DNA of 64,000 nucleotides from positions 310,001 to 374,000 of the forward strand of contig JAQGDQ010002372.1 of the NCBI GenBank assembly GCA_030141605.1. The letters are read 5' to 3'. The translations under genes were made by a program, and so were the position numbers. Positions 1,809-39,598 of this stretch are shown here, piece by piece. Below the pieces are notes generated by a model, which did not search any database, was not told the DNA's origin, and saw only the letters and a program-made list of their open reading frames with translations. Source of the DNA: Tubiluchus corallicola. Its lineage: Eukaryota > Animalia > Priapulida. Numbering within the stretch: position 1 is the first letter of the stretch; the number at the start of each line of letters is the position of its first letter.

Positions 1809-4800
1809 CTGTAATGTGTCGCCTAACGAAGAATTGAGTTCGTGTACCGGTTTGCAGTTTAAATAATCTGACCAATTTGACCACGTTCCTCCTAACAAAC
1901 AATCTTTACTTGCATTATCTGTGAATGTAAAGGGAAATTAGTTATTATTTATTAGTTATTAATTTCATTATGCTTCATCAGCACATTTTTGGGCGTTAGA
2001 TTTCTCCAAACCACCGAAAACATACAGAGATGCAAAATGCAAAAACAGAGGTCTCACTGCTAAGGCTAATTTCAAATTAATCTAGAAGCCATCCTCCCCC
2101 TCATTATTTTTCTCTGCGGTCTGCGCCCATGTAAGCCAAACCTATTGATTAGGAAATAATTAGGAAAAACATACGAACTATTCTTTGGAAAAATTGTCTT
2201 TCGCGCAAAAAATAAATTTTTCTAAACTAAAAAAATAATAGTTTTGACGTACATTCTTGTGGGAACAACATAGGATACTGAGGAAACGATATAGTTTGTC
2301 ATGTTGGAGGGTCGACATAGAATGTCGTTGTTACGACGTCCTGTGCTGGCTGAGCGACATGAATATTTTTATTGCCAAGTTGCAGGCCCAGACTGTGCAC
2401 ACAGAAAGATAACGATGTCTCTTCAATTAAAATTAGTCTTTTATTAAAATAAGGAAATCATTAATGTCACATGGTAATCATTGTGAATGCAACATTTATT
2501 ATCATAATCCTTTTAATGGTCAATAAGGTTTCAACAAATCGAAAAATCTATTTTAGAATGAAGTTTATGCAATAGAATAGCGCGATGGTTTCGACGACAA
2601 AGAAAAATAGTCTTTCAAGGAAATGATGTGGAAGACTGCACAGTGAATATACAATTATTTGAAAAATATATTTCATCGTTTCTTTGAATTTCGTCTCTTT
2701 CGTAAGCAAGTCAGAATATTTGAAATAAATGCGGAATAAACTGTATTAGTATAGACCAGAAGTATTTGCGTTTACCGCATGAATGCTGTGAATAGTACTG
2801 CACGCGTAAATCGGTTAAATTTATGTCAACTTAACCAAACCCGTCGCAAATCGGTGAAAGTGTAAATGACAGCAAATCACGCTCAATTCACGAGATGCTC
2901 AATTACATGAAAATAGTTTAATAGTGGAAATTGGGGCGTGGCAGTTTTCGCTTTCTTCAATTTGTTCTTCAAATTTGAGGATTTTCCAGGTATTAACAAT
3001 GATTATTATTACGACAAACAATTTTTTCTAGTCATAGTATTGATTCTTTTGAAAGCTATTGCAAAATTTAGCCTACAAGTTATGCACTTTTATCATTACT
3101 AGTTTAGTTGCTGAATGAATATCTGTGCAGTGTCGCCTGCATACATTCTGAATTATAGTTGCACTTAAAAGCGACAAAAACAAAGGCGAAGATTCGTCAA
3201 TTGAACGCGAAAATGCAACAGAAATGCGAGCTTAGAAAACACCACAAATAAGAAAAACACAAAAAGTATAAGAAGATGAAACATGAAGAAATGTAGTGTT
3301 AAAGACGAGAACCTAAAAACTAATTAAAACCCACGAAAACACAAGCAAAATCAGAATAATACAAAGGTAGAAATTCAAAATGTGGGCATAATGAAAACAT
3401 CAAAGATAGAGGATCACTTTTAATACGTTTGTTAGTCAATACACAATTAGACGAAATAATGCGCGAACGAGAAAAAACAGAGAAAAAATCTACAAGCAAG
3501 AAAAACAAAATTCAAAAACGTGACAACACAAAACTACAAAAACGCAAAGATGAGAAAACGAAAATACGAAACGTCTCTTCTTCGATTCCGTAATTGGTTT
3601 TCATCAAGGTGTGCCTACGCATAGGAAATCTGCCTGGTTATTAATTAATTTCACAATAGCAACATTTCTGGTTCACACGATAATAAAGTCGTGCTACTTT
3701 AATTGACAGCAGGAGTCTGAGTGCAATGACAATAAGAACTAATTAGTATTGCAATTATAACAGTTCCACCTCATTTTAAATGTCACAGTTAGCATCTATT
3801 AGATACAGATTAGTAATACAGCCACTGGGTTTGTGTTATGTAAACGCGTTACGTAGTAATTAATTATTTGTTTATTATTCTTTAATAGTAATGGTTATAG
3901 ATATAATATCTGTATAGATGGATATAAGAGCATTTATTGAGTAAGTTCCATTGCTAGAACACCAGCTGTTTCATCACGCATCTTTGACCATTACATACAC
4001 CAACAGAAAGGTGTCTTCTCATTGGTGATTTTTTTCAGTTGGGCGCTGGGAAAAATTAAAGGAAAAACGCTATTTCTATTTTCGCTTTCTGCAACTCATG
4101 ACTTATCAGCGTACTGTATACTGAACGTTTTATGTTTTCAAGATGTTAATATTCACTTCTTCGCGAGAAGTTATTTTTACTAGTTACTGAGTTCGAAAAA
4201 AATGAGCTTAATTTCCTCTGATTCTTATAAATTAGCTTGAAACTCCAATTCAGGTCCTTTTAGATGGTGAGTTTTGGCAACCTCTTCCAAATACCTTTTG
4301 ATACGTTGTTTTTATTATCAACGTCGGAGAAAGGGTCTTTTCCTTTAAAAACGTTAACATAAACACACAGCTATGCAAGAGATTTCTGTCTATAATTATG
4401 CCTATGATTTTTGTTATTACTATTTTAAATGTTGTAAGTATTAATTAATAAAACAACTTCACACTAACCAGATGTGTCGTACTGTATGTTTCCAACAAAA
4501 GCTGGACACGTTAGATATTGAGTGAACCCTTCTAAAGTAGGTGGCCAACAAAGAATGCCGTCAAAGTGCGCTGGACAGCGTCTTCTTCCGTTGTAGAAAT
4601 ACCCTGAAGAAAAACGAAGAGAGACAATGATAATTTTGCTAGAGCCCAAAAAATGCGTGGGAAAATTCTGTGTTGCACGAACGACATCTATGTCACACGC
4701 ATGGGGTTATTATGACTTTCTTGTAATTTATTCCTAGACAGGGTAATAGCTCATTCCGGGCGCAAGCTAGTCTTGGGTGTTTACCTCGTAGAGTTCGAAC

Positions 4801-13557: not shown

Positions 13558-16500
13558 TTAGAAAAACATTGAAAAGTGACATTTTGCTCTCCACTGACTA
13601 AACCGTAACGTGTTGTACATGTAAATAACGACCAGAGGAAATCGTGTAGATATGTAACTCTCGGGGTCTCTTATAATCGTTTGTGCCACGCTGCTTAAAC
13701 CATTGTAGTACTTAATCAGGTTTCTGCCAAATCGAATGAAATCAGCAAATGTATTCCTATAAGGCATCGTTGTTCCAGGGATTTCTTGCCAGAGGCAGTT
13801 GTTTACCATTTGTGTCCAATTTCCACAGGTCGACCTAGCAAACGCTTGCTCAAGTTCGAGAGGTACCAGATCTCCACTGCCTTTGCATCGTTTCATTTCT
13901 TGACACAACGCCCCGAGAAAGCGATTGCGTTGTTTAGTAGTCCAGAAATAAGGATGCGCTAGAACTTGTGCTATCGTTGGCCTGTCCATAGGGTTTCGCT
14001 GCAACATCCAAATCACCATATCATTGTATTCCGCATTTATGAACCTCAGAAATGGCGTTCCCGCATTAACATTCGCCTCGCATTCTAAACAATTGCTACC
14101 AAATGGATGTTCTCCACCGGTTAGAATAAAGTACGAAAGCATTCCTGAGATGAAGACGTCCGATTTTGCACTGTAGTTGGCAACTGGCTCGGCGATTCTA
14201 ATACATTCCGGGGGCTTCCAGTAGTTACTGTTCGACCACACTTCGTCTGAAACAGTTGAGTTGTCTGACTGAAGAAAAAGGCTAATTCCAGTGTCTGCCA
14301 ACCGTAACATACCTGACTCGTCAAGTAGGACATTGCTAGGCTTCAAACCACCATGGAGTATAGGACCTGGCTTTTGTGAATGTAGATAACTTACACCTCG
14401 GAAAAGCTGGTAAACCAAGATCTTGTTAAAATTCTCACTGCACGGTTTCTGCCTTATAGCTTGCAAATAGCTATATAAGTTATACTCACACAACTCCATG
14501 GGCAAAAAACCTCCTTCTCTGGTTTCCAAAAGACCCTAATAAAAAATAAATTATTAAAATTTAGATTAAAATAAAAAACGCGTTAAGATAAAAAAAACTT
14601 CTAACGCCACTTCTTACATCTATCTTCAGGATGTGTTGATCATTTAAGCTCCATAAACGAAATCTGGACACGATGTTTCGAAACTGTTGAAGTTTGTTCT
14701 TGCAAATGAACTTCAATGCTAACTCGGTTCCATCTTCATTAATGCCAAGCAAAACGCCACCTCCGTCAACTGATCTAAAAAAAGTTAATTTTTTGCAGCT
14801 GTAATGTAACCGTTCCAGAAACTTCCTGAACATGTAGTGGTTCGAGATTTGATCTCAAAAAGATGCAGCTCAAAAATTATATTTACCTCTTTCCAATAAA
14901 GAACTCATCGGAGTAACAAAATCGTATGGTTCCCTTCGTGATTAGATCACTGGCATGCATTGAGGCTAACTTTCTAAATTTGTCATTCCAACGCTTGCTA
15001 CGACTCTTCCAGTTTCCATTGGAAATGCTACCGTCACAATTGTGCAAGTCTTTCTGAAACAGCATTTCTCCAGGAGTGCTCATCTGTACGCCTTGTCTTT
15101 GGCTAGCATGGACCAGGTTATCTACTGCAGGTTCTGTTGATATACTAATTAAGGAACTAGAGGACATGCAATCAGTATCGTCAAAATCATTTTGTTGAAT
15201 GTTATTGTACCTGTCACCGTTGTAGGTACTATTTGGTGGTCTGAGATTTCCTATATTCCATTGTTGCAAATCATACCCACGACCATAACTACTTGTGGCT
15301 TGTGACATGGAAAGATTTACATCTGATGCGTGTGAAACAGCTTCATTAAATCCCACCGAATTTGTGCTGCTAGAAGAAGATGTGAAATTGAATCCATTAT
15401 CCTGCTGTGCAAATATTTCTGCGGGTGTAGACATCTGAGGAAGCACTTGAGCAGTTGGTTTCTGTTTGACTGTTGGACATTCGTTTTTCCTCATTTCAAC
15501 CACAACGTCAGCATTTTTTGGTAAGTACACCAGATGATTCCTATTGGTTGAGGATAAAACACCTGGTTGACGAAATGGTTTTTCTGATTGAGGCACGGTT
15601 ATAGTTTCCTGCTGAAATTCAATTCCTGGTGGAGGAATTACCATAGGAGCATTGCCACTGGAAAGTGGCATGTGATTTTTGTTCCAAGGAGGCATTGAAC
15701 CAGGAAAATTGCTCCAGAGTTGCTGAATAGCAACCTGAGGCAGTGTTGGAAAAAAACCAGGGGGTGGGGGCATCCTCCAGTATTGAACAAAAGGCGGTGG
15801 TCTAACCATGTGATTAATACCTGGTGGACATGGGATTTGACATTGGTTACTAAGATTGGGATTGTCATGTGGCACTGTACTGACATTGCATCCCACAGAA
15901 GTGGAATTTGAGTTTAGCAATGTTTCCTGCCAGTTAAAATTACTTTGTGCAGCCAGAGGAACAAGAGACTGGATTATGTTGTGAGAATTACTTTCGGAAC
16001 ATGTAGAACACCATTCTGGCCCAGACGGCAGATTCTGAATTTTTGAAGTGCAAGCCTGAAAGCTTTCGGATGGTTTGGATGATAACCCTGCTTCATTGGA
16101 AGATGTAGGTGTTGTATCGGCATTTCTAAGAACAATTTGACTGCCTGTGTTTTTGTTTGAGCAGTTTTCTTCACTGGTTGATAATTCTGGTGTTCTAACG
16201 TGATTTAGTGATGATTCCAACTCCCTATCTATCTGATCATAATTAAAACTTGAGCTGTCACTCAAATTTTGACTTTCATCACTATTTGTGTTTGTGAGTG
16301 ATTTCCCAACACTTACAGTTCTTTCTGGAGATTGAACTGTAGATGTTTGCCCCGAAATATCAGACTCATTTGATTCTACTGAAAAAGATTCATCAGATTG
16401 TGTCAAAGGTTGTATTAAGCAAGACTGTGAACGAGCAGTAACAACTTCTTGAATCCAATTGTTGATCATTCCCCTTTTTATTTCATCTCTAACGGGATCT

Positions 16501-19500
16501 TTTTCTGGTGAAACAGCCATATTGTTAACTGAAGAACGAGACAATATGTGTGACTCAGAACTTTTGAAAATTTTCAATAAAGGGCGTGACCAGTGATCAT
16601 CAAAGCCATCAAGTGTTTTCCATACGTTGGTAATATCAGCTTGTGTAATGTTGGCATTATCATTTGCTATGTGAATTACATCAGATTGTATACCCTGGTT
16701 CACGTCAGATACGACTGGCATTTGCTGGTTCTCAAAAACCACTGTTTCTGAGGATTTTGGTGTAATTTCATTTTTTGGCGTGTCGGCTTCCACATGTTCA
16801 CAGGAAATATTATTATTATTAACACTTATAATTTCAGTATTTTCTTCATATTTCACAATCCCATTATCTTGCTTGTCCTCTTCCAGTTTTTTTGCTTTTA
16901 ATTGCCTTGGGAGGAACTCAGCACAATCGTCTTCAGTACCATTATCATTGTCATTCCACTGAACAACTTCAGATGGCAAATTGATTCTATATGACGTAGT
17001 ATTTTGATTCACAGGTTCAATTTCATCTTTGTTGGAGATCAGGTGCAAGGTAAAAATAAAATCCAAACACAAAATTTCTTTTACGTTAGCTAATGTTAGT
17101 AATTGGTTACAACTGCATTCCTCATTGTCATGATCATGGTCGTTACCGCTTTCATTGTTTTCATTAGTGTTGAATAAGCTTTCCAAAATTGACGTGTCAT
17201 TACTGCTGCCATCTGTTAAAGGATCGTCGCCTTCTGATTCATCATTTGCAGTGTAATAACTTTCAGACGTCGATGTTGTAGATGTTGCATTTTCCACAAT
17301 GACTTTATCAGCATGCTTTTCCTTTCTATCACAGAGATGATTCGCAAAGTCACTGCTTGTTGTAATCTGTGATGATTCGTTGTTTCTATATGAATTATCG
17401 TCAGTGAAATGTTCCTTTTGCTGTAATTCACTGGAATGGTCTTCCGTCATTGTCTTATTAGTTTCTTCACTGCTGATGTGAACATTCTTATCTGAATTAC
17501 TTGTAGTTTTTTTAAATGTCTTCTGAGGACTTACTGGTGCTGATTTTGCTACACATTTTCCGTTTGGCAAATCCAGTCTTTTTCTTGATGGCACATCATT
17601 AACGTCATAGTACATGCCAACTGGTTGTTGCTGAGTTGTCTGCTCCCAAACGAAGAGTTGCTTGCTTCCATAATCAGAGTGTGTACGGTGTTTGGTAGGC
17701 GTTGTTTTGGTTTGAGTTTCTCGTGGCTTGCTTGATTCACCCTGCCCTTTTACTCCTGTTTTTGGTTTTATTACATTACCTGGTTTAATTACTTTTGATA
17801 CTTCATTCTGCGCTTTTTGTGGACTACATGTGCTCTTGTTATCCTGTGACATAGCTAAAAAGGTAGAAGATGGATGTTTTGCTTCTGCATGTTGCAAAGC
17901 AGTTGCGGTTTTCTCTGTAGCAGTCCACTTTATGAAATCCTCTATCTCGATTCTGCTTATTTTCACGTTTTTTGGTAGCAGGTAGTCAGAATCTGTAAAA
18001 GCAAGCCAAGGGTTTAATTCTTCTTCTGAATTTTTTATATGCTTTGTCTTTTTCTTTGCTTTTTCCACAACCTCAAATCTATCACCAACATCAACCGGAT
18101 AAGCAAAACCATGATTTAAACCCTTCGTGTAATCATCATAAATAGTTTCATCAGTAGATGATTTGGAATTTTTGTCCTTATCTCCCTTGAGCTTTTTATC
18201 TTCCCATAATTTCTCAACCTCAATTGTTCCGTCTTGGCCATGTTTAAGCTTACATTGAGATTGTTTTGGTTTCTTCTTGATTTTGGACATCTTATCTGTG
18301 GCACTGTCTTCGTTATAAGGACTTGTTGTTTCTGATTTTTTGACATCTGGGGATTTATTTTTTGCCTCAAGCTGATTATGCGGCATTTCGTTTACGTCAT
18401 CACTGTCTCCTTCATTTCCTAATCTTCCATTCGATCTAGTGGAGCTGTAACTGCCATCTAGTTTTTTTGAATTTTCTCGGTGACGTCGCTTTTTTTCACG
18501 CTTCCTGGCTTTTCTGGCCTTATCGCGCTCTTCGGATTTTAATAACTCGTTCTCATGAACAGCAGCCAATTGTTGCTCGACTTCGTTAAACTTTGCTTCA
18601 AAGGCTTCCCACAGCCTCTTAATGTGTGCCTTTTCATCTTCTTTGTGTGAAATGCAATACATTCGTTCAAAAGTCGTAAGAAATGGTTTCAACTTGTGAT
18701 AGTTGTTCTGGAGCCACTTGAAACCTTCTGGTGCATCGCAGAGAGCAACTACTATCACGAGGCTGGTCACCAGGACTTGAAGATTTTCCATGTGACCCTT
18801 TGAGTATTTTACAGCTACTTTGATAAAAAATTCCAGTTTAGATTTGTCTATCAGGTAAGATGCAAAACGATTGTCTATCGTATTGTCTTCATTAAGGATC
18901 AGCTCTTTGCAGAATGTGCAAGATGCCAGAACAATTTCTTCTTGTGTCATGAACCTTTGGATGACCTGTATAGTAGCATCCAGTGTTTCGTATTCATCCA
19001 TGTGATGTTTTACGTCTGGACTTCTTTTTAAAACGGCCGTCAGGCTTGGATAAAGATACTCCGTGTAAAACCGTGAAGCGCTGCGTGCTTTTGGATCTAA
19101 CATTCTCTCTGTTCTATTCTGAAAATGTAAAGCTTTATAAGAAACGACTTAGACAAAAAAGTGTGAACTTCTCTTTGAAACTGCAGGCTGAAATGTTGTG
19201 GATGCGGATGACCACACTACTTTTCGCCATTCACCCAATGCAATATTTCATTTCAAACACACTGCAGCGGAGCCTACTTCTTTGCTTGTAGAAGACCGAA
19301 AGCAGCGTAGTGAACGACACTTCAGGCTGCAGTTCAAAGCAGAGGTTAAGTTTTAATTGACATAACTGTATGGCTTCGTTTGCAAAAGATAGGCAGTCAT
19401 AGGTCTGATCTGAAATACTGGTGCGCCGTAAAGCAAGTAGCTCGTACGGAAAATGGAATTTACTACCAAGCAAGGACTATAACAAGTGACCAAGTGTTGA

Positions 19501-22500
19501 ACAAATCAGAACGGATCTTTCTTCACTAGAGAAAGAAGAAAAGAGAAGGAGAAACATAGCGATGTGCAGCACAGTACCCACAGTTAATTAGTGCTTAAAA
19601 ATGTATTTTGTTCACTATTTTAAAAACAACTAAATGGTATTTGTTTTAGTTATACGTAAAAAACAACTAGCTAGTCCAAAACTGACATCCACTTTTTCAT
19701 TGTTTTATTTGTTTTTTCGACGCTGCGTCAGGAAATGATAACCAATTTGAGCATTTTTATGAATTAACCGCATTATTTTTGAAAAGCTAATTAGCTGCTT
19801 TTTAGTAATATAGAGACGTGTCTTAAAAGTGAAAGTTTAATAACCAACAAAATTTCGTTCTTACCTTAATGTAAACTGATATACATGTGTTACAATCTTT
19901 TGGACTGCATTTGCATTCTTTCCATAGCGTTTCCTTCATCTTTGGTACTTTACTGACCAATGCCAGGCAAACAGGGGTAATCCCAGCCTAAAAATATCAG
20001 AAACATAAATTGTGTATGCAAAAACTAATTACCCTTATCAATGACCAACATTCATATATGGCAAATGCAATGGCTACATACGACAAATACACTTTTTTCT
20101 CATTTATAGCAAAACATTAAAACAAACAAGCAAATGTGCAAACAATTAAACAAACAAATAAACAAACATATATAAACAAATTACAACCACAAATGAAAAC
20201 AGATTTGGCATCACTTCTGACATTTGGGGCTAGGCGACCGAGATTTTAGCAGAGCCTCATAGGCTAGGTTAAAGTCTTTGGCCTGTTAATAGCGTTCATT
20301 ATTGACACAAACGCAAATTATACGTGTAGTAAAAAAACTTGAAGCCATTGCGTGAGCTTGCGCGTTACAACAAAATTGGTAAGTACTTAGTACTAGTTAT
20401 TGGTACCTTATTTTCCAGAAGAGCGTTACATTTAGCTTCAAGTAGCTTAAGCAGTACTGCTGGATAGCCGTTTTCTGCCGCTAGATGGAGTGCGGAATTA
20501 CCATCGGCGTACCGCTGCAAGTTTTTAAATTTGTTCACATTGGGTCGTTTAAGAAGAAAATCAACACAGCTTTCCCAGCCTCTTTCAGCAGCTATAATGA
20601 GTACTGTTTCACCTAGCTAAAGCAAAATGTATGATTCAGAATTGTAGCTTGGTTGCTAACACATAGGTTTTCGTATCGACGTAAACAATTGTTTGCAAGG
20701 TCTTGCTACATAATTACTGTTTATTTGTTTGCAACCTTACCAAGCAAGAATAGCATAAGGAAATTTAAACAAAACAAACGCCCTGCTATTCATCATGCAC
20801 TATTAAAAATTAATGAACAGCTAATAAATATTCGCGCTGGTGACTCAGCTAAAAGAGCCCATTTATAGCTAGTGCGGAAATGGCGCGCTGTCACTAAAAC
20901 AATGAATTATTAACAAAAAGCGACTACATAAATTATATTTTGCAAATGCATGAGTGCAGAACTTTTCGTGAGTGACTGTACGTAAGCCATACAGGAAAAC
21001 ATAGGAAACTGTGGTAGTACGTCGACGATTATGGTGCCTTGACGATCTGCTCTTTTTGAATTACATGTAGTTAGTAGTGAAAATTTGTCCAATAATTAAA
21101 AATACTTTGTGTTATCCGAATATACTTTAAACATTCATTTACGCTCTTGCTTTTAATTGTCGAAATGTCTGATAATAACTTTTTGCTTCACTTCTTTGCC
21201 GAAGTCTTATTTCTTTGATTTCACTTCCCCTTTGCAGCACATGCTAAAACAAAGCCCGTTTCCTTACTTAGACTTTTTTATTCAGTTTAGCACTCTGCAA
21301 GCCAGGATCCAGCATTCATTGACAGATCTTACTTAATGTAGCTGCCGTGGTAAGACCAGAACCTATTTTATTGTGAAGGGTAATTCTCTAAGATATCTTT
21401 GTCAACATTGGTTCTACATATAATACGTCCTGCTTCAACAAAACAAATGATTCATGGGCAGCGTTGTAGATGAGACCGCCCAAAGGCAGTATTTCAGGTA
21501 GTCACGCACTTAGTTGCCGACCAAAATCAACGCCAAACACACGGGCAATTCTCCCTCAAAACACAACAGTGATTATTACACACACAGTAATCAATAAACA
21601 AATCCGCATGTTATCAGTAGTATCACTTTACAAGTGTATGATAAATGCTTGTGAAACTGAATCCATAACCTCTTATATGACAAGCACATCCGATATTACC
21701 ATATAAGAAACTCTGGCCCATACACGAAAACAGTCCATTTATGGCATTCTAGTCCTATAATCTTAATTTTTTGTTTCTTTATATTAGTTCATAAAAACTG
21801 ACGTCGATGGTAAATCACTATTTAATAAAAGAGAAGATAAAAGAAAAGATTAAAGTTTATTAAATACCACAACTAAATACGATGCAACAGGGTTGCTCTC
21901 TTTTCTCGTTCGCCTGCCAATATCGTGTCTGCCAATATAGCCTGCTAATTCGCCTGCCAATAATCTAACCCATCAACATGAGCAATAGTGCTGCCCAGCA
22001 TGCGTGCAACAATAGCAAAGCATATATTTCAAAGGTAGAGATGATGTTGTACCTTGGTTAGATATCAAAGGTGAAACGATGGCAAATTAAAAAAAAACAA
22101 TTATGCTAGGATGGAAGTCAACCGATATACCTAAAACGGAACCTGGGTATTGAAGACTTGAATATCCTTCACTTGTGGGTAATACTTTCTTTCATTGCCT
22201 GACACCTAGAACTTTTTTATTGAAACATGTAATAATACTTCGAATTTGATAGCTAGTTCTAGGAATGGAATTACGGGAATGGTTTACCTTATTAGCGTAG
22301 CTAAAATCAATGTGGGGTTCATGGTTAATCAGCAGTGAAAAATTGGCCGCATTTCCATTCTTTGTAGCCATCATGATCGCGTTGGAACCATCCTATAAAA
22401 TGGAAAAAATGAAAAAAAACATTCTAGTAACAAATTTCATGTTAATTAAAAGAAATTTGTTGACTAACCAATAAAAATACGTGCTCGAGCAACTGTGTTA

Positions 22501-25500
22501 CATAAAGGCCGAACAAAAGCGTGGACAGATAAGCGAACAATTAATTTCACAAAAACAAATCTATAAAGAAATTAACTAATGCATTAATGAACGATCGACA
22601 AATAAATGATTAAAGAATTAACAATAGACAGAACATAACTCGCATAAACAATTGATAGAATGGCTAAACTTAAACAGCAAACAAATTAAAAAGTGAACCG
22701 ACAAATCGCTGCCCAGCAGATGTTCCATTAAGAAGGTGAAAAAGTATACGAAAGCAAGAGTTGGGCAAACTATCAAATGAAAAAAGGATAGACACAGACA
22801 GAAAAAAATGGCTAGACAAATATTCAAATTTCTTTTGCTGCCAAAATTAACTTACCAAAGACGTGGCATTTACGTCAGCTCCAGCTTTCAGCAATCTCTC
22901 AGTGATTTCTGGCCAGCTGTGTTTGCAAGAAACCAGTAAGGCTGTGGCTCCATCCTGTAATAAAATTTTGCAATATCTCTTGACTTTTTCGATAAAACTA
23001 TTCAGCAGACACGTAGCCAGGGGGGAGCCTGAAAACTTCCCCTTCACTGAATTTAAAAAAAATTATGAATGTTTTGTTTCCTAGTTGTCCGATGGATCGT
23101 ATTAAACAATTGAAGAATTAACGAATAAACAACATTTGATTTAATGTGCTAACATTTTTATTTGTTATGTGTATTTTCTCTTTCAAATGCTTTTTGTGGT
23201 TAAACTTTTAAAATACTATTTATATGCTTCTTTCGCGAGAGCTTCTGAAAGCATGTGACAAACAACAGTTTCCTAAATTATGTTTACTGTTGACAATAGG
23301 TGTTGTCATTCCAGTGTCTATAAGCACACCAGAAAGAACTTTCTCTGACTTACCTGTGCCTTATTTTCCGCGCCAATTTTCCTGTGCTATTTTTACCTGT
23401 ACCATTCGTTTTTGTCTCAAAAAATTTGCTTAGCTTGAGTGCAACATTGAGTTAAAGATTTACGTTGCGTACTTCACTTTACTCAAGGCGTACCAACCTA
23501 TGTTAACCCGCGTAGCTTGCGTGGTATAGTTTCAAATGTTTTACTCAAGACACTAAATTTGAATCATCTTTAAAAATTTGTCACTATTGAACACATAATT
23601 TACGACAAGCAGTTATGAAATCTAGTTAATGACCGTAACTTGTTATGTGTGCCACAAAATTATTTATAAGAAAAAGTAACTCAAAATAAATTTATATCTC
23701 TTGCGTAATTATGTAACTTTCGCAACATAAACTAAATAGTATAGAAGTTCAAACAGTAGCTCAGTTTTTATAGCACGCATAAATTCATAACAATAACAAA
23801 TAAAGTTATCGTTCTTACAGTTAATTTTTATGCCATTCTTTACTTATTTGTAGTAGATCCTACATGCACTTGGCGCGAAATTTGGTACGGAATTACGGTA
23901 CGATATTTTATCGTACTAGTACGATACGATTCGATTTTGTAGGTCCGGCACGGAATTATGGTACGGTATTTTTTAGAGGTACGAAGTGCGGTATTTTTCG
24001 TACCGTACCGTGCCGTACTGCCAGCCATGCCCACATGTACCTGAACAAAGACGAAATAGACATTGAAAATGTAATACAGGGGTTTGCAGACCTCAAAAAG
24101 GCACATTATTTTATAAGTTACAGTTACAAATAATTTTGTAATTTATTCTATTGTAATTACGATGAACTTTAAGTAAACTCTACCTTTAATAAAAATTGAA
24201 AACAAAACTTTACTTTTAATTATACATGGCGAACCCAATTTGTTTACGAGGTATGGGAGTGCAAACTGTATTAGACTACACAGTACATCTATTAGTGACT
24301 ACCTCATTCCCACTCCCATGGACTGAGCTCCGAAATTCAATTTAAGCATTGGACCAGATAGGTGTTACTGCCTCATTAAAGGGTGAGTACTACCTCTCGC
24401 AATGACCTAGGTAAATTGATAGATAAAACCACAGCTTGATGACCTGTAGAAGCGTTTTTCTCAGTTGGCCACAGATTGACGGGCCGATTTGTCAGCCAAG
24501 CGAAAACCTCGAGCAGTGGCCAGTGAATGGATAGGAGGCGCCGATACAATATTCCTGCTGAGGAATTTATCTGTCATACTGCTTATGAATATTCAAATAA
24601 AAGTCTTAGTAAACTGCTCAGCCTTTTCTATTTAGAATAACCTTAAAATTGCAATGTCAAGCAAACAGGTGATTTTTATATTAGTTTGTTAACAAAGTCG
24701 ATGTTAATATCTTAATACATGAGCTTAGTGACCAAGATTAAGCAAAATCATGGTTGGAGACTATTAACACCACCGCGTTCTGTGCGATTGTATTCAAACT
24801 GTTTTCCTCTTAGAGGGACGATGCATTCACATCCGAATATGCAAAAATCATACCGGCATAGTATTACAGCTTAGAATATTAGAACCGATAGTGATAATTG
24901 ATAATTCCGCCATCACCATCCACATTAAGTAGGCGCTAGCATTGAGTATTGTAGACCAGCTTGAAAGTGCCAAACTGTATAAAAATCAACTGTTAGCTGA
25001 AAGAATGCAGTTTACGGTAGCAACATGTTTAGAGATACGAAGGGTCTACTTACGTCATTGAAGCTAGCGTTGACGCAACTCTTATCTTCTATGAGCTTTT
25101 CTACAGCTTTTACGTGGCCGACAGAAGCAGCGACTAATAATGTTGGATACGGAAAATCCTGCAAAATAAAAGAAATAAGAAAGCATGTCCGGGATTTCGC
25201 AAATTCACGGAGAGAACGTCGTTACGGTTCATTAAGTAACAAAAGATTCGTTATGGAACAGTATTATGTATCAAAGTAATACAGGGGTTGGTCTTGGTCT
25301 GTGGGTAGGCCCTGAAGACCAGACCCCAGATAGACCAGCCGTAGACCACAGACAGACCAACCAGATCTGTGACAAATGAGATTTCAGATAAATCAGAAAC
25401 CCCAGACTGATCAGCCACAAATTACACTACAGATATATTAGATTTCAAACAGATCAGTAAAATCAACCACATACCAGACCTCTGTCGACCTTATAAGGAC

Positions 25501-26072
25501 GTTATATTTTTAACAGCAACAACAACAACAAGAATAAACAACGGCTTCTACTAAAGTATAAAAACACCGTTGATTTGAAATTTGCAAACAGGATTAACCA
25601 AAATGTAAGACGACTGAGAGACATGTAGTGCAGTTGATATCAAGAAACTTTTTCGATGTTTAGTAGATGAGTGTTCATACACACTATAACTGTACAAAAA
25701 TCACACGCTCAATAATTTTACTTTTTACGACAATTGTGGTTAAACGTACCCAAGGGAAAAAAGCTAAGGGTTAGAGCTAATATTAACACACTTGGCTATG
25801 ACAGACCAAGATAATAATATTTATCTGACCTATCATAACAAAAAAACTAGCTGCTATAGCTACAAGTTACTGCGTTTCACAAGAATTACCAAATTTTCAA
25901 AAGAAATAGTTCCTCTAGGGTCCAGTCGGTTTTCTTTCATTAATTCATCTAGGGCTAATCGAACATTCTCGGCTGTCACATCTACTTCTTTCTTATCCTT
26001 CTTCTTGCGAGTTCCGCATTCAGCGTCTTCAGCTTTCACTACAGGTGAGTTTTTTCTTTTTATTTCAGTCAT
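13558..26072 (-). CDS. RNase L-like protein (ankyrin repeats + long spacer + IRE1/RNase L-type pseudokinase + KEN domain), ~2063 aa. Exons: 26072-25890, 25158-25054, 22954-22856, 22392-22288, 20616-20407, 19987-19865, 19118-14887, 14774-14618, 14535-13558.
   Basis: All exons have AG/GT boundaries with compatible phases; total 6192 nt ending in TAA. Ankyrin motifs: DGATALLVSC..GADVNA, GETVLIIAAERG, DGNSALHLAAENG, GITPVCLA. Kinase motifs: ELALK, MELCEYNL, HGGLKPSNVLL, LADTG, KSDVF..G, GGEHPFG, RPTIAQVLAHPYFW. KEN: YRNTFADFIRFGRNL...DPESYISTRFPLVVIYMY. Confidence 0.85.
23006..24115 (+). mobile_element. hAT transposase C-terminal remnant interrupted by other insertions, in intron 2 of the RNase L-like gene
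   Basis: FPKLCLLLTIGVVIPVSISTPERTFSDL matches the hAT dimerisation motif (23269-23352). HMYLNKDEIDIENVIQGFADLK (24033-24100) looks like the hAT C-terminus. A TIR-like CAGACACGTAGCCAGGGGGG lies at 23006. Confidence 0.6.
23866..24030. repeat. GTACG-rich element end (MITE-like)
   Basis: Clustered GGTACG/CGTACC motifs ending cgtaccgtaccgtgccgtactgccagccatg. Confidence 0.45.
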
Positions 26073-28925: not shown

Positions 28926-31900
28926 CAAGTATATAATACTTGTATGTTTAAGAACATAAAAGTACCAGAAAACAAACATCTTGGTTATCATCACCGAGTT
29001 TTCTTCCTTTTGGTCAAGTAACAATCCAGCAAACAAAGATATGAGTGATTTAATTAGTCAGAATCAATAATTTGTGAATTTTTACAGATCATGCTAACAA
29101 TTAGTTCTATCAAGACATGTTTCTAGGTTTTTTTGATGACTCAGCCATTTTTAATAATTAAAGGTGTTTTTCCAGCATGTTTTTCATGCGTGTACTATCT
29201 TACACATGCATTATGCAAGTACGTATCTCTTTAGACATTTTCCAAAGTTATGCAAAAGAATGAGTTTAAAACAATTTTTTAAAATATTTACCAAATCCAG
29301 TATGTCATCGTCCAAAGGAATATTGGCACGTCGACAAAGGACTTTCAGCTCATTTTTCTCAATGTAGCCAGATTTGAATCCACTCCTAAAAGAACAATTT
29401 ATACCAATCAAACTTTTATCTTAACAGATTTGCCGTCATTAACACGTACATATACTTGCTTGTGCCAAATGCTTGTGTTGCCTCGACCGAACAATATGAC
29501 TTTTTTGCACAAAATATCAAACACCAAAATACCAGTTTCTGGTGTAATGGTAAAAAGTTACTGCAAGGCTTATAATTAAAGCACACTTATCAACACTGTT
29601 TACTTTGGAATTTCAAACTTAATGCTTTCCTCTTACATAGTTGTAAACACTTATGAAAGTTCAACTCTATGGCTCATTTAATTAGCCTTGTTAGCCCATA
29701 CTGCCCAGGCTTAATTACCTATAATTATCTGCATTTAAAAACTCCTTTTTCAAAGCATCTTTCTGCATTGAACACCACTGTTGTAGCATTTTTTGAACAC
29801 GATTCAGCAACCTTTCTGCATCATCATCTTTTCTGAAATGTATAAATCTATAAATTTAACTATATTAAATTTAATCATCCTATGCAATATGCATAGGGAG
29901 ATAAAAGATGTTCATTTTAAATTTGTGAGTTAAAAATTGCAGCTTCTGACACCAGTTTTATTGCATTTTACACAGACTACAATAATATTATCTACATATA
30001 ATATATGTGTTATATACAGACAGGATAATAATCTCGAATGCAAAAAATTCAAAAACTTTTCAGGCTATTTAATCTTAATAGCTGTTTCTCTAGACAACCT
30101 GATAATGTACCAACTTGAATTCAAAATATTGCTATCAGTGTGCAACTGGAAAAAGTACGAAAAGTAGGGTATGAATGAAACATACATTTATTCACAGATG
30201 CCAAAAAAAATGTCTCATCAACTTAAGAGCACTAAGTGAACTTATACAGCTTGCTCAATAAGTGCTAAATGAGTCTCAGAAGCTTTTAACCATGTAAAAT
30301 AAAACTAAATGTCTTTATGTATTTAATTTTCCATAATGCCTTAATTCAAATACACTGAAAAGGCCATAGCAAACTAACAAATTATCAACAGTTGAATATT
30401 ATTGAAACAATCATGTTCAAAATACAACTACATTTAACACAGTTCCAGATTATCTTGTACTTACTTATATGCAGTAGACCCTTGAGAAGTTGGCCCTTGT
30501 TTCTCCAAATGAGCTTTTAATGACAGCACAAGAGACGCTATTAAAAAATACAGCCAGGAACTTTAAAATATTGAAAAATCTTACCAGAAGGTAAAAAATA
30601 ACAAAGTAACTTTAAATAAGTATGAGATGAAATAAAACTGTATGAATAGATACCAATTTAATTTCATTCACTAAAAAATGAAATTTGCAACAACACAATG
30701 TTTGATTTACGCTTTTGTAAAGATGAAATATTATGGTATTAAATTTTTAGAGTAAATGCAGTTTGCAGTAAATAACTTAGGCAGCAGAATCATAGATCTT
30801 TGTGAGTTGCATTCTAAGCTTGGATGATCCTTTCTTTAACACACAGACATGTCAACAAACTAGGCTATTACCATGCAAGCTTTAAATTGTATTTACCCGG
30901 AAATTTGTCCTTGTGTAGCTCTACATATTTTACTACATATTCATCAACATCAACAATTTTGAAGCGATTGTTGAATACAACTATTATGCTTCCAATGTCA
31001 AAATCCTGAGGTCCATAAAATTCAGGATTTTGCACTGATGATCCTGGCTTTTGAAGCCTTGTTCGTTCTAAAAATTTCCCTGAAATTTATTTAAATGGAT
31101 TCAAGATAAAATGCTATTATGATGACATTGAAAAGTTTTTTACCTGATAGTAGAGACAACAGATATATGAATGAAAAACAAAATGTACATAGTTGTAGTT
31201 GGATGTTTTAGCCTAAAAATGACTGTTTCACATTATTTTTCACATTCTAAGAGTGTGCATATAACTTACCTCCAAGAATTCCTGAGTTTCTCACAGGTGG
31301 TTCATATATTGTGACCATGTCATCAGCAAGTCGGTATGAAATAACGAACCTTCTGTTTTTGTCCTCTTGCTTGACTGTATCCTAATCCATGAAAATATTA
31401 ATATTAATTCACAAAGATAGGGCAAAAAGTTGTTTTAACAACTAAATTCGAATATGTAACTCAAAAACAGTACGGCATGCATTTCTCGCTAAAATTTCTG
31501 AAGTCCAGATAAAAATGAATCTAATGACAACAAAAGAAATTAAGCACTATATCAGCAATATTACATTTATCAAATACGTACAACATAACTGAAATGGTAT
31601 AAAAGAACTTACCAGAATTGCAGCATAACGCAAGACATTATGGTCATTTTGCAACATCTTAACAACGTCTTTCTTGGGTGGTTGAGGTATAAGTGACAGA
31701 CATGATTGCAAACTATCTTCCACTGAGCCGAAACCAGTGTAAGGTGGTACTTCCTAAAGAAAATGTGAAAAAAAAATCAGAAAAAAATATGACTAAAAAT
31801 TATTGAGGTTTTTATATCAGAACATTTTAATAATAATAATAATAATAATAATAATGCATTCTTAAATCAGGGAAATCAAAATCTCGCTAGATACACTTAT

Positions 31901-34900
31901 AATGGTAATATGGATAGCTTAGTTAAAACACGTGAATTTTTCATATGAAAAATATATGTACAGAGCTGTTATTCAAAGAAATGAAAATTGTGATGGTTGT
32001 AAATGTTTGTAAATTGAGAATGGCTTGTTTTGTGTACAGATATACAAATAATTTACTACCAAATACCTTCCAGTAATTTCGAATAGAGATTGATGTTCTT
32101 ATAAAACAAAACTGCTAAACGATTGTCATTTTCATAAATGTAGAACTAATGTAAAATTACAATTGCTGATGTGTAGACAAATTATGCAAGGAATAGAAAA
32201 CTATTAATATTAATCAAGTTACTATGGTCTAGTCCCTAGGCCATTTCTTACCCTAGAAAAATTGTTTATTTTTGTTGACTTTTTTCAGCAATAGACCTGG
32301 ATTTTAATGTGTATCAAATAAAAGCCCTGTTAGATAGTTCTATCTTGGGCAAATATGGTAAAATGTGATAAATAGATAGCATACAAAACAACAAATTCTA
32401 TTGTTAATGCATTAGAAGAACATGCATTCCTGCTTCGTAATGGTATTATGTAGCACACATCTACCTTCTTCACTACACGTTTCTCTTGTCCGATGATCTT
32501 CTCTCTATCTATTGGTGTAAAATCTGAGATGTCAAAATGTGCTTTATAAAAATCACGAGTATATGCATCGCAGTCACAAATCAAGAACCTAGTTAGGAAA
32601 TATAATTTATGCCATTAAAAGAAGATTTCATTACGTTGTTCATTAAGTTATAGTAGTTCATTAATTATAGTTTCTCTGATGTATGCATGTAACTACTTAT
32701 ATTAGATCATATCGTAGCGATGATCTAAGCAATATGATTGCAACAATAATTATTATTGTGCAGGTCTTCATTAAAACCCTTTCAAAACTGCTCAACCAAA
32801 ATGGTTACACGTAGCATTTTAAGAAAAAAAAAGAAAAGTGCGCACATACACAAACTTTCAATATACCAGGACATTCTCATTAACTTTAAAAACCCTTACT
32901 CAAAAAAAGACAGCTGGAGGTGTGGTTGTGTGTGGAAGTTTTAAAAATGCTGACATTACATTAGTGCATTTAGTCCTGAAGACACAACCCACACCTTTAA
33001 ATCAAAAAAGTCATGTATGGATTCACAACCATCCACCTTTAAATAGTTAGTGCAAAAAAGCCGGCCACTAACGAATGTAGGTAAAAATGGCAACAGAAAA
33101 AATGGCACGGTAAAAATGGCACAGAATGAAAATCACACAGGAAAAAATGGCACACTTAGTAAAGTATGCGCTTAGGGTTAGGGTTACAGTGGGGATAATT
33201 ATTTTAGTTATTTTTACCTCTGCCAAAGAAGTTACTTTCAACACAGTTTGTTTGTTTGTTTGTCTGTTTATTTGGTTGTCTTTTGTCTGTTATGGTAATA
33301 AAAATATTACACAAAAACTATCTGACAGTTTTCCAAGAAACTCTGTGAACAAAAGTGGGCATAGGGTACTGAAGTTGGAATCTTTTCGTCGGTTCTTTTT
33401 TCTCAAAGCTTGACCGAACACCATATACAAAAAAACATTTGTGGAGTGCTTCATGGGGTCTTGGAGGGAGTGTTTAGTACTTCTTTTTTGTTATCTCCAC
33501 TGGACACACAACTACGAGTTAGTTCCAGCTGCATTTTGAAAAATTCTGTCTTGTAAAACTGTGTACCACACTGCACCAGAAAGTCACTTTCACACTGCAC
33601 ACTGTCTATACCATTGGCTTATTAGTGTGTATAGGCTTATAAGGTAATTTGGTATGTATATATTTGTCAGTCTATTACCATCGCCAAAATTAATGGTGAA
33701 AAGTTGGATAAACACCATGTGGAACACTCGTGCATTATTGACTATAAATCCATTTAATGAAAATTTTTTCCTGTTCCATTTTTACCTGAGCTATTTTTTC
33801 CTGCACCATTTTTTCCTGTGCCATTTTTACTGTGCCATTTTTACCCATGCCATTTTTACCGCATATTGGGTACTAACTAATGACTATCTCGTTAAGTCTT
33901 TAAGAAGGAAGTTTCAGAAAAGGTGACAAAATAATAAACATTCTAGAAGATGATAGTGAACACTTTTCTGAAAAGACTAACTGTTTCACGTCATTTTTTA
34001 TTTTTCCTGATACTTTACAGGAACCATTATGAGGTTATAGGCCATATATAAACACATTATTTCATTTAACCTCCAAAAGCATAATTACTTTCTGCCATAA
34101 ATGACAAGAGAGTCCCCAATGCGAAAATCTTTTGGTGTGTACCACTCAGAAATGTCACTATCTGTCACCTCCATTGCTATGGTGGGAAACAATGCTGTAA
34201 TTAGAATAAAGAAGTACATCAAAAACAAAAATTAGACACTGGTAATTAGTAATTTTAAGAAAACACTGAGATGTTTAAGCAACAAGTATTGGCTTACATG
34301 GAAGTTTTCCTCTGTTTTTTGCAAGTTTTTGCCTTCGCATCAGAACTGGAAAAGGGTCCCTTCCATTATTTGCTGAATGTTGTTCTCTAATTTCTACTGT
34401 GTCATCAACTAAATAGTACTAAATAGAAAAGAACAATAAATAAGAAACAAGTAAAATTATATTAAATGACATTAAATGAATGCCCACTAGTCCAAAGCAA
34501 TTTTTGTTAAATCAAGATGCATTACATAGACAAAAACAACAAAATTTCTCTTGAATTTAATTAGGTACTACCTTACAGAACTATCACATGCATGCAACAT
34601 TTTTTAATTAAGCTATATTGAAACTTATTAACTTACATGAAGAACACAAGGTCGTACTTCGCCAAACATGCTATCCCTATCATCCCAAACACAATAAAAT
34701 CGTAAAACTTTTCTATCCAATTCCAGAAACTGACGAGTTTTATCAAATGTTGAGGGTGTTTTGTAGTTAGCAATAGCAGTTCTCTTTGCACGTGCTGTTG
34801 TATATGGATCATCTGGGATCAGTTCAGGATCATTGAGTTCAATGCCCTCACTTGCCATGAATTCCTGCAAAAGCCGCACTAATAAAATGGAATAGTAGAC

Positions 34901-37900: not shown

Positions 37901-39598
37901 TTCATTTCTTTTCTCATCACTTCAACATGGAAGAATTTTTTGCTTTTTCGCTTGTTTACAAAATTTAGTAAACAGTATGAAGTAGTTCACGACTGTAATC
38001 TAATTCATAGAATTACTAGACACAAACCAAGAGGCAAACCAAATATCGGCAAGCATAGTGTCAATTTTTTGTGCTAAGCATGTGGCGCCGTCTATTAATA
38101 AAAGAAAAAACACCATAACCTAACTGGTGGATACCTATTTTATAACGGTAGAGACTGTTCAATGTTCATTAAACTTTAATCACCTGTGGAATGCCACTAT
38201 TGATTACAGTGGGCTCATTAACGACAATGCTATCATCTTCCAGATAATAGTAAATGTTTACAGGGCGAATTCGCATTGTTTCCTCAGCAGCTTCAACAAC
38301 AGTTTCTGTGAAGTATGCATTAAATTTAAGAACCTAAAAAAATGAATTCAAACTTCAGCTCAAAAGAATATAATAAAATTAAGAATTATAAAGTTATTAA
38401 GTGGAACAAGGACTTTGAAATCAATATGGATTTATATGTCCAATATTGCAATTATCATAATTTAAAGGCAATAAAAGTTGACATGCTGGTTAAAAGAGTA
38501 AAAATGACTAAAAAAATCAATAGTCAGAAAAGTGGAAGACAAAAGTTATTTAAAAATTGTATAGTGTTTTAAAGAAAATACTACACGTCATAATACGTGT
38601 CACATGTAGTGAAACACATTACGTAAAACCTGAATAAAATGTACCTTTTTGTCAAATACGAAATGGGCTGGCAAGAACTGTGTTTGAGGAACTAACTGAG
38701 AAATTTGACCTGGCCCTGCTCTGTAAGCTGCTGCAGAACGTGGTCCTGCAGCTGAAAGTGTCTTTGTTGCCCTTGCACCAATTTCATACACATATTCTGG
38801 ATGCTCTGGAAGATTCTTGTCGGCTGCTTCAGATATAGATTTTGCTTTCAAAGGCTCACCACCAATGCCAGATTTTGGAGCATTACGCATTGGATACCCA
38901 TTCACATATCCAAGAGATTGTTGTCGATGAAATGCCATTTTCTAAAAAATTGGTCGTTGCAACTAATTATAAGAATCGGTGAAACTTGGGACTTGGCACA
39001 ATCAAAGAAACTTGCATACACATCTATTATATTGTAATATATACTACTAAGTGATAAACTGTTACAATGTTCATGAAAAACTGAACCAAATAACCAGCTG
39101 ACTACACAATCTTTTACATCATTACATACATGCAGAATGTTACCTTTATGCATAGGTGCACACTACACACTATGCATACTATGTAGTAACTACTAAATTA
39201 GTCAGAAGACCCATAGGCCTGCACAGACATAGTAAGCCTATTAGCATATTTTCATGTTTAAGATCATGATTGAAGCAATGGTAACAGATTAGTAGGCTAC
39301 TAAATTAGGAAAAAGTTTAGCGTTAAATTAAATAAAGACAGTGATCAAGTGTGAAGTGAAGCAGATTATACGAGTACACTACAATAATTGCAAGGCAAAC
39401 AAAAACCGAATCACTGTAAAACATCAATGAAGTATATAAATGTTAGTTACAACTTGAAGTTTTAAACTGCATGTGCTTTTGAAGAATTAACAATTTACAT
39501 AACGCCCGCCTTGTGGCATTTTGGAAATTTAGAAAAACAAACAAACTTACGCTAGGGTCTTTAAAACTGTAACCTGGCAGTTTTGGCATCTCCTCCAT
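28637..39598 (-). CDS. EFHC1: EFHC1 / Rib72 (three DM10 domains + C-terminal EF-hand), axonemal microtubule inner protein. 15 exons: 39598-39551, 38941-38645, 38333-38184, 36812-36675, 34864-34637, 34418-34298, 34194-34089, 32588-32465, 31753-31613, 31381-31270, 31079-30897, 30537-~30466, 29832-~29719, 29385-29292, 28717-28637.
   Basis: Motifs matching EFHC1: [39 protein letters not shown]; [12 protein letters not shown]; [23 protein letters not shown]; [18 protein letters not shown]; NGRDPFPVL; [16 protein letters not shown]; [33 protein letters not shown]. Exon phases are compatible and the ORF ends in TGA. Confidence 0.95.
28853..28925. repeat. (TA)n microsatellite, interrupted
   Basis: Direct reading. 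Confidence 0.95.
31828..31855. repeat. (AAT)n microsatellite
   Basis: Direct reading. Confidence 0.9.
33072..33868. mobile_element. MITE/foldback-like non-autonomous element with inverted arrays of AAAAATGGCAC, in an EFHC1 intron
   Basis: The left arm has repeats of ggtaaaaatggcac (33080-33155) and the right arm has repeats of gtgccatttttacc (33765-33862). A one-sided related array lies at ~23353-23408. Confidence 0.75.
33209..33490 (+). mobile_element. HINE/DINE-1-like element nested inside the MITE
   Basis: tttttacctctgccaaagaagtta followed by (GTTT)n/gtctgt repeats, the typical HINE layout. Confidence 0.45.

Follow-up and report, generated by a model that had tools for sequence, protein, structure and literature searches.

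The Tubiluchus corallicola gene described here, located within the 64-kb window (the whole stretch of DNA that was analysed), is predicted to encode one member of an old, unnamed invertebrate family related to RNase L in which both catalytic motifs are broken, and, judged from sequence, its product would likely act as a non-catalytic scaffold. Two kinds of kinase-KEN protein are familiar, IRE1 and RNase L. The present family, represented in insects, a snail and T. corallicola, would constitute a third conserved type, which keeps the fold and the RNase L-type linker although both of its enzymes appear dead. Retention of such a double pseudoenzyme for so long implies an undescribed function. The preliminary description of this DNA had suggested a possibly undescribed antiviral or RNA-stress module, and no paper describing the family was found in the literature searched.

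Gene model and continuity of the reading frame

The gene comprises nine predicted exons on the minus strand, all with GT-AG boundaries, which join into 6,192 nt encoding 2,063 aa with a single stop at the end (Table 1). The predicted protein consists of five to six ankyrin repeats, an ARM-like domain, a spacer of ~1,180 aa, a pseudokinase and a KEN domain, in that order. With these GT-AG exons and this single open frame, the nine-exon joining of ankyrins to kinase-KEN proposed in the preliminary description is confirmed as a predicted model, which also contains the segments of this DNA quoted there. The Pfam scan, covering all nine exons separately, returned matches for each of the three domains named earlier, Ank, Pkinase and Ribonuc_2-5A (weak in ankyrin exons 2 and 4), and no credible match in exons 1, 6, 7 and 8.

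It is very improbable that ankyrins and kinase-KEN are encoded by exons of two genes, or that the model is mis-spliced. The exon junctions are predicted rather than observed in RNA, and Pfam support for exons 1, 2 and 4 is weak or absent; however, alignment shows homology to relatives crossing all eight exon junctions, and the helical domain begins in exon 6 and runs into exon 7, which is itself in frame with the kinase linker. Additionally, a family HMM built without the T. corallicola protein matches aa 41–477 as one domain with 215 bits (leave-one-out). Two separate genes are rejected on the junction-crossing homology and the exon 6–7 continuity. Ankyrins, helical domain and kinase-KEN occur together in 25 of 30 relatives of at least 1,000 aa (the helical domain in 28 of 30), which supports one transcript and agrees with the earlier claim that ankyrins and kinase-KEN share one protein. 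In two Logan-only relatives, the ORF is uninterrupted over 1,765 aa (contig of 5,690 nt) and 1,354 aa (contig of 4,200 nt), so that these contigs may be spliced transcripts. A second data set, which is DNA because introns are covered and intron 7 is spanned unspliced, lists 12 SNPs in exon 7 (seven silent, five missense), with no stop or frameshift among them; from a further run, just 1-2 repeat pieces aligned. A pseudogene is ruled out by the open 6.2-kb frame together with the conserved family.

Table 1. Features of the T. corallicola gene, in positions of the window
Feature	Position	Strand	Content
Exon 1	25890..26072	-	aa 1-61: start codon, basic N-terminus, pre-ankyrin helix; junction aligned with relatives; no credible Pfam match
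Exon 2	25054..25158	-	aa 62-96: ankyrin repeat 1; Pfam Ank E 0.026 (weak) and family alignment
Exon 3	22856..22954	-	aa 97-129: ankyrin repeat 2; Pfam Ank E 1e-5
Exon 4	22288..22392	-	aa 130-164: ankyrin repeat 3; Pfam Ank_2 E 0.018 (weak) and family alignment
Exon 5	20407..20616	-	aa 165-234: ankyrin repeats 4-5; Pfam Ank E 2e-11, two repeats
Exon 6	19865..19987	-	aa 235-275: capping sixth ankyrin-like repeat, start of helical domain; no Pfam match; both junctions aligned
Exon 7	14887..19118	-	4,232 nt, aa 276-1686; one open frame: helical domain, basic stretch, spacer, pre-kinase linker, first kinase strand
ARM/HEAT-like helical domain, family-specific	18564..19118	-	aa ~256-460 (~200 aa), starts in exon 6, conserved
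Lys/Arg-rich stretch	18468..18512	-	aa 478-492, end of a long helix; comparable basic stretches in relatives
Spacer	15021..18467	-	~1,150-1,180 aa, Ser/Asn/Thr/Glu-rich, Pro-rich block
Pre-kinase linker helix	14988..15011	-	W1645-x3-S-x2-W1652; family profile and row comparison
Exon 8	14618..14774	-	aa 1686-1738: kinase N-lobe, beta-3 lysine K1707
Exon 9	13558..14535	-	aa 1739-2063: kinase C-lobe, KEN domain, stop; Pfam Pkinase 1e-26, Ribonuc_2-5A 9e-8
Catalytic loop	14347..14355	-	H-G-G instead of H-R-D; G1801 at catalytic Asp position
DFG position	14287-14295	-	reads D-T-G
KEN active-site helix	13708..13725	-	R2009-N2010-x3-Y2014; catalytic His replaced by Tyr

Ankyrins, helical domain and spacer

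Within the ankyrins, which lie ~1,400 residues away from the kinase, W178 and E232 of exon 5 are conserved in the family (W in 21/23 and E in 23/23 aligned rows). The helical domain that follows, absent from the preliminary description, scores 33 bits against an insect-only HMM, where the best of 1,000 shuffles reaches 9.8. Its structure model has a pLDDT of 68.7 and resembles WapL (VIA Z 10.6) and beta-catenin (9.3) most closely, which is the level of a generic solenoid, and Foldseek with this model gave no match at E ≤ 0.001. The Lys/Arg-rich stretch is a possible NLS or nucleic-acid contact. The spacer, likely disordered given its composition, varies from 284 to 1,276 aa across 29 measured family rows, and BLAST of it against 179 collected proteins gave no match.

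The most hydrophobic 19-mer of the protein (aa 390–408, KD 1.86) lies in a helix of the ARM-like domain. A transmembrane helix at aa 388–408 is rejected, as this segment is a solenoid helix that is less hydrophobic in relatives. The IRE1 hallmarks of signal peptide, luminal beta-propeller and TM helix appear to be absent, in agreement with the reported lack of a signal peptide and luminal domain: the N-terminus is basic and ankyrin/ARM-like, and luminal-type Pfam matches are confined to IRE1 rows.

Kinase-KEN fold and catalytic residues

The AlphaFold model of exon 9 (pLDDT 78.5, pTM 0.80) superposes on IRE1 kinase-RNase structures with TMq ~0.7 and E 2e-12, and IRE1 is also the best whole-domain sequence match of the kinase-KEN module (E 1e-19); an Atlas search with exon 9 returned generic kinase clusters. 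The pseudokinase retains K1707, N1806 and D1819, and the KEN domain retains Y1997, R2009 and N2010. In alignment, Y2014 occupies the position of the His that was changed to Asn in 3sdj, an Ire1 mutant without RNase activity. KEN activity is reported to need both the His and the Arg of the R-x4-H motif (PMC3710099), and RNase L H672A is reported as inactive (PMC10400998). The preliminary description did not mention the loss of this histidine.

Both active sites are altered throughout the family. Specifically, the HRD Asp is present in 0/38 family members versus 20/21 fish/lungfish, 30/30 other cytosolic and 30/30 IRE1 rows, and KEN Arg and His occur together in 0/38 versus 20/21, 23/28 and 29/30 rows, respectively. 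Gly occupies the HRD-Arg position in 37 of the 38 members, giving an H-G-x loop. Thirteen of the 38, mostly from the clade containing Physella, retain Asn and His of the KEN motif and have lost Arg, while the motif is nearly erased in insect members.

Family placement relative to IRE1 and RNase L

The 38 members sampled are cluster representatives, of which the named ones are insects (Tribolium and Periplaneta among them) and a snail (Physella). The family is monophyletic with support of 99/97 under LG+G4 and 99/98 under a mixture model. Both traits that define it are found in the T. corallicola protein: the family-specific helical domain, and the H-G-x loop together with a position in this single clade. 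In kinase-KEN trees built without RNase L sequences, the family falls in a cytosolic kinase-KEN clade (98/96) that also holds the fish/lungfish proteins. Nesting inside IRE1 is rejected for the T. corallicola protein (AU p = 3e-5) and for the family (AU p = 5e-6), so the separation from canonical IRE1 put forward earlier holds. A canonical IRE1 is ruled out by the former value, by the lack of a luminal domain and by the lack of active kinase and KEN motifs. Whole kinase-KEN profiles rank IRE1 over RNase L, with 187 versus 129 bits for the family and 236 versus 139 bits for the fish clade, and such scores therefore cannot settle descent; slow evolution of IRE1 plausibly accounts for its being the best whole-domain match. 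A sister relation between the family and the fish/lungfish clade was neither recovered in the tree nor rejected (AU p = 0.085), and their helical domains gave an HHalign probability of 0.3% with shallow fish profiles, so that no homology was detected from these domains on their own. A KEN-region search with the lungfish protein yielded eight fish/lungfish proteins among 76 candidates and no RNase L.

The pre-kinase linker helix is common to cytosolic kinase-KEN proteins, RNase L among them, and is lacking in IRE1. A seven-sequence family profile of the linker has a single match in the PDB, pig RNase L 318–377 (E = 0.0015), and the 51-aa linker piece of the T. corallicola protein alone has none there at E ≤ 10. 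The resemblance of the pre-kinase segment to RNase L noted earlier persists as a shared linker helix at the level of the family profile. Collectively, the position outside IRE1 and the shared linker support RNase L kinship of the family, although the T. corallicola protein, by its predicted features, is not itself an RNase L. Of the earlier proposal of an RNase L-lineage family outside vertebrates, the kinship is therefore supported, and an active RNase L-type nuclease is not. Speaking against the antiviral nuclease reading are the broken KEN R-x4-H motif (incomplete in 38/38), the missing HRD aspartate and the five to six distant ankyrins.

Proposed function and alternatives

As a scaffold, the protein would bind a protein partner through its ankyrin and ARM-like solenoid, with the long spacer serving as a flexible tether between the solenoid and the C-terminal module. 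ATP binding by the pseudokinase may persist through its retained residues; carrying an RNase L-type linker helix, the pseudokinase would likely form a back-to-back dimer of the kind seen in IRE1 and RNase L. In such a dimer, the two dead KEN domains would hold RNA or a partner and leave it uncut. Among the named members, the family tree roughly tracks insect phylogeny, a pattern that fits constitutive regulation better than the part of an effector in an arms race. As a counterpoint to a pure scaffold, residual or altered RNase activity is conceivable, given the KEN residues retained here and the 13 members with Asn and His.

A dominant-negative or allosteric regulator, which would tune the RNase of an active kinase-KEN enzyme by heterodimerising with it, the partner being IRE1 or a cytosolic paralogue, is an unlikely alternative to such a scaffold: the kinase-KEN fold is intact in the predicted model, KEN enzymes are described as acting as dimers (PMC8104961), and cytosolic paralogues with apparently active motifs occur in other animals, including cnidarian relatives, but no active cytosolic paralogue from insects is found among the matches and the family has long diverged from IRE1. 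Slightly less probable again is a functional invertebrate analogue of RNase L, in which a nucleotide second messenger at the ankyrins or linker would switch on a non-canonical RNase. In RNase L, the individual 2-5A-binding residues are W60, K89, F126, E131, R155 and R309. The linker also participates in 2-5A binding there, as stated in PMC4718504, and this linker, the RNase L-like module order, the Arg and Asn retained in the T. corallicola KEN motif and the OAS genes reported from invertebrates (PMC6307210) are all consistent with an analogue. Against it stand the replaced catalytic His, in a motif incomplete in every member and almost erased in insects, and the geometry of the ankyrins. The 2-5A pocket is described as needing ANK2, ANK4, ANK9 and the kinase N-lobe (PMC5927464), so that five to six ankyrins at this distance could not form an RNase L-like ANK9/N-lobe pocket without a large fold-back. 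Moreover, OASb, which PMC10400998 gives as the sole OAS type of animals other than jawed vertebrates, failed there to activate RNase L in yeast for two vertebrate pairs. Among the 62 ORFs scanned within the window (of 132 composition-filtered), none matched OAS, cGLR or a paralogue family. Searches with neighbouring genes were not informative on the host taxon: in the Atlas, the PHLPP RA region matched nothing more specific than generic RA clusters, and an EFHC1 exon scored 37.8 bits on 8snb (sea urchin) versus 36.3 bits on 9cpc (pig), a difference too small to be of use.

Origin of the ankyrin fusion

Ankyrin-led cytosolic kinase-KEN proteins on both sides of the protostome–vertebrate split make a single versus a repeated fusion testable. 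A tentative and rather doubtful possibility is that a cytosolic kinase-KEN RNase, led by ankyrins and equipped with the RNase L linker, was already present in the last common bilaterian ancestor and gave rise to this family, the active fish/lungfish proteins and RNase L. The founder of the family would on this view have been a proto-RNase L, an ankyrin-pseudokinase whose RNase worked, and sensing of a nucleotide signal or RNA cleavage may persist in some members. Under this ancient fusion, the lineages lost different KEN residues (Arg and Asn remain in T. corallicola, Asn and His in the Physella clade), which implies that the founder RNase worked. The ankyrin fusion would then be older than jawed vertebrates rather than the product of separate gains; according to PMC10400998, RNase L arose through a gain of ankyrins shortly before jawed vertebrates. 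The Tribolium and Periplaneta members make the family open to RNAi.

Comparison with known kinase-KEN proteins

RNase L of jawed vertebrates (PDB 4o1o, 4oau) is likewise cytosolic and combines N-terminal ankyrins, pseudokinase and KEN in one protein (here predicted), with a structured ankyrin–kinase linker helix also present in the T. corallicola family. It differs in having nine ankyrins adjoining the pseudokinase, whereas the T. corallicola protein has five to six, followed by the extra ARM-like domain and the ~1,180-aa spacer. RNase L keeps conserved nucleotide-binding residues, according to PMC4718504, and depends on H672 (PMC10400998), while the T. corallicola protein has lost the catalytic-loop Asp and the KEN His. 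IRE1 shares the kinase-KEN fold and is the closest whole-domain match in both sequence and structure; however, it has a luminal domain, not found in the T. corallicola protein, lacks the pre-kinase linker helix, and carries an active HRD/DFG kinase and an active KEN where both sites are broken here. One sentence of PMC10400998 (2023 PNAS) mentions ankyrin-bearing kinase-RNase proteins other than RNase L and calls their ankyrins independently gained; as given in that sentence, these resemble the present protein in combining ankyrins, PK and RNase outside the RNase L clade. The fish/lungfish ankyrin-helical-kinase-KEN proteins, exemplified by Protopterus LOC122799199, Scleropages LOC108938732 and those of Salmo, Alosa, Arapaima and Siganus, have the same module order, including the helical domain, basic stretch and linker helix, and fall in the same cytosolic clade, but their spacer is short and both active sites are intact in 20/21 rows of their clade.

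Gene model and domain architecture

The predicted gene comprises nine minus-strand exons, all bounded by AG/GT, which splice to 6,192 nt and encode 2,063 aa with a sole, terminal stop; seven of its eight introns are phase 0. The phase-compatible joining of ankyrin repeats to kinase and KEN domains, proposed in the preliminary description, is thus borne out as a single frame. The three Pfam models it named are also matched. Exons 2–5 carry ankyrin repeats, with strong hits in exons 3 and 5 and weak ones in exons 2 and 4. Exon 9 matches both Pkinase (1e-26) and Ribonuc_2-5A (9e-8), and its predicted structure (pLDDT 78.5) matches IRE1 kinase–RNase structures. The 12 exon-7 SNPs listed from X1, a DNA sequencing run mapped to the locus, include seven silent and five missense changes and no stops.

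A first homologue search yielded ten hits, four of them relevant, from stick insects and Xenia. A wider search (20 hits of 4,303 candidates) adds cockroaches, sawflies, Orussus, beetles, a mirid bug and the snail Physella, and nearly all homologues found are annotated "uncharacterized" or "hypothetical". A further 150 proteins come from the full HMMER search, with a top identity of 39% across exon 9. The closest relative, the fragment P0028 (39% identity, sister at 100/99), begins its homology where the exon 8/9 junction falls and carries Gly at the catalytic Asp position, as does the window protein, which suggests that the two have this intron in common and come from related host lineages.

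The segment originally read as spacer includes a conserved ~200-aa helical domain immediately C-terminal to the ankyrins and common to the relatives. An insect-only HMM scores 33 bits on the window protein's copy of this domain, against a best of 9.8 among 1,000 shuffles. A second HMM, from the family minus the window protein, gives 215 bits over aa 41–477. The predicted fold is an ARM/HEAT-like solenoid (pLDDT 68.7, best Z 10.6), a generic match that tells nothing of function. Beyond the 37 relatives used, the helical HMM, built from 23 family rows, detects only five proteins, all family-like and excluded from the tree for being near-copies or having broken models. The spacer itself spans 284–1,276 aa in 29 measured rows, and its BLAST comparison with the collected proteins gave no match. 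The gene is real and conserved. No description of the family appeared in the literature covered, which takes in few subscription papers, and six of its gene identifiers matched 0 papers; as first supposed, it is apparently undescribed.

Features of the predicted gene and its neighbourhood
Feature	Position	Strand	Details
Predicted ankyrin–kinase–KEN gene	13558..26072	minus	nine exons
EFHC1/Rib72-like gene	~29000-39598	minus	DM10 domains; directly upstream of the predicted gene
PHLPP-like gene	from ~39993	plus	RA_3 E 1e-21; weak LRR match at 52165-52500
Hormone-receptor (HRM) domain exon	4467-4706	minus	downstream of the predicted gene; probable class B or adhesion GPCR
Decayed LINE-like fragments	~41900-44950	plus	PHLPP intron; weak RVT_1 match, E 0.002
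High-copy repeat, intron 2 of the predicted gene	~23100-24200		X1 depth 186
High-copy repeat, EFHC1 intron	~33070-33200		X1 depth 978

The EFHC1/Rib72-like and PHLPP-like genes lie head to head, ~400 bp apart.

Position among kinase–KEN proteins

The alignment retains 126 of 180 sequences; the 54 dropped comprise 20 of low score, 13 short and 21 partial, broken or near-copy sequences removed by hand. In the 60-row IQ-TREE phylogeny (LG+G4; RNase L not among the rows), the family forms one clade (99/97) nested in a cytosolic kinase–KEN clade (98/96) and separate from IRE1, whose rows are labelled by luminal-type Pfam hits for some and clade membership for the remainder. A 30-row mixture-model tree, likewise without RNase L, concurs (99/98). 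Family limits were drawn after FastTree inspection, so the helical domain serves as an independent marker. AU tests reject grouping with IRE1 for the window protein (p=3e-5) and for the entire family (p=5e-6), upholding the earlier placement outside canonical IRE1.

Fish and lungfish ankyrin–helical–kinase–KEN proteins also fall within the cytosolic clade. Grouping them with the family is not rejected (AU p=0.085), and homology between the two helical domains, compared alone, is not detectable. These ~900-aa lungfish and ray-finned fish homologues (P0040, P0173-P0175, P0178, P0179, P0057, P0047), mostly unnamed or called IRE1-like, have intact HRD and KEN motifs. RNase L is reported lost from ray-finned fish in the available text of PMC10400998, and the fish and lungfish proteins are candidates for a real RNase L-like effector there. 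Partner domains are exchanged across the cytosolic clade: other homologues (P0099, P0111, P0072, P0056, P0101, P0102, P0152, P0069, P0001) carry PYRIN, CARD, ubiquitin, GT4-conflict glycosyltransferase-like, TROVE or tandem kinase–KEN domains, with kinase motifs intact and the KEN motif present in most, weak in the GT4 group. The clade appears to be a radiation of animal immune effectors that has gone unrecognised.

A profile built from seven sequences across the pre-kinase linker and the first strands, its segment and members picked with the claimed RNase L likeness already known, matches pig RNase L 318–377 (E=0.0015), the sole match at E<=10 among 177,635 chains. That likeness therefore holds for the family profile, but not for the window's 51-aa linker piece alone, which found no match in the same kind of search. 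The fish-clade profile aligns to RNase L from residue 313–317 and to IRE1 only further in, and the linker tryptophans occur in 0/30 IRE1 rows; the linker is thus a marker of the cytosolic clade together with RNase L rather than of the family alone. Whole-domain scores are higher for IRE1 than for RNase L in the family and fish clade alike, so such scores cannot decide descent.

Active sites

The window catalytic loop reads H-G-G, with K1707, N1806 and D1819 kept. The HRD aspartate is present in 0/38 family members, 20/21 fish/lungfish, 30/30 other cytosolic and 30/30 IRE1 rows. The KEN helix contains R2009, N2010 and Y2014, the last aligned with the histidine for which 3sdj, a structure of RNase-inactive Ire1, has asparagine. 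KEN activity needs both Arg and His of the motif (excerpts of PMC3710099), and the H672A mutant of RNase L is inactive (excerpts of PMC10400998). The pair occurs in 0/38 family members, 20/21 fish/lungfish, 23/28 other cytosolic and 29/30 IRE1 rows. Singly, Arg is kept in 14/38 and His in 13/38, the latter mainly in the Physella clade, which speaks against calling the family simply dead; its founder is therefore likely to have carried the complete motif, and altered KEN activity may persist in some members.

Proposed role and comparison with RNase L

A non-catalytic scaffold is the likeliest mechanism and a moderately favoured one, its directly observed parts being anatomy and motif loss. The ankyrin–ARM solenoid would bind a partner and the spacer would act as a flexible tether to the C-terminal pseudokinase–pseudoKEN module. 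That module may be able to bind ATP and to form dimers, and may hold RNA or protein that it does not cleave. Alternatively, the protein might regulate an active kinase–KEN enzyme by heterodimerising with it, which is unlikely. That the ankyrin and kinase–KEN exons are two genes is very improbable: homology to relatives spans the exon junctions, and of 30 relatives of at least 1,000 aa, ankyrins occur in 26, the helical domain in 28 and the two together in 25. A true RNase L analogue is slightly less probable than the heterodimerising regulator, and the absence of both the HRD Asp and the KEN Arg–His pair from all 38 members argues against an RNase L-type nuclease. The protein is probably a double pseudoenzyme relative of RNase L rather than an invertebrate RNase L.

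The available text of PMC10400998 describes RNase L as restricted to jawed vertebrates and reads several other ankyrin-bearing proteins as independent gains; that of PMC6307210 reports RNase L not found in oyster, limpet, Lingula and acorn worm. Portions of PMC4718504, PMC8104961, PMC11672174, PMC13319465 and PMC9334734 were also covered. The RNase L 2-5A pocket is built from ANK2, ANK4, ANK9 and the kinase N-lobe (excerpts of PMC5927464), whereas the window protein has five to six ankyrins, ~1,400 residues from the kinase.
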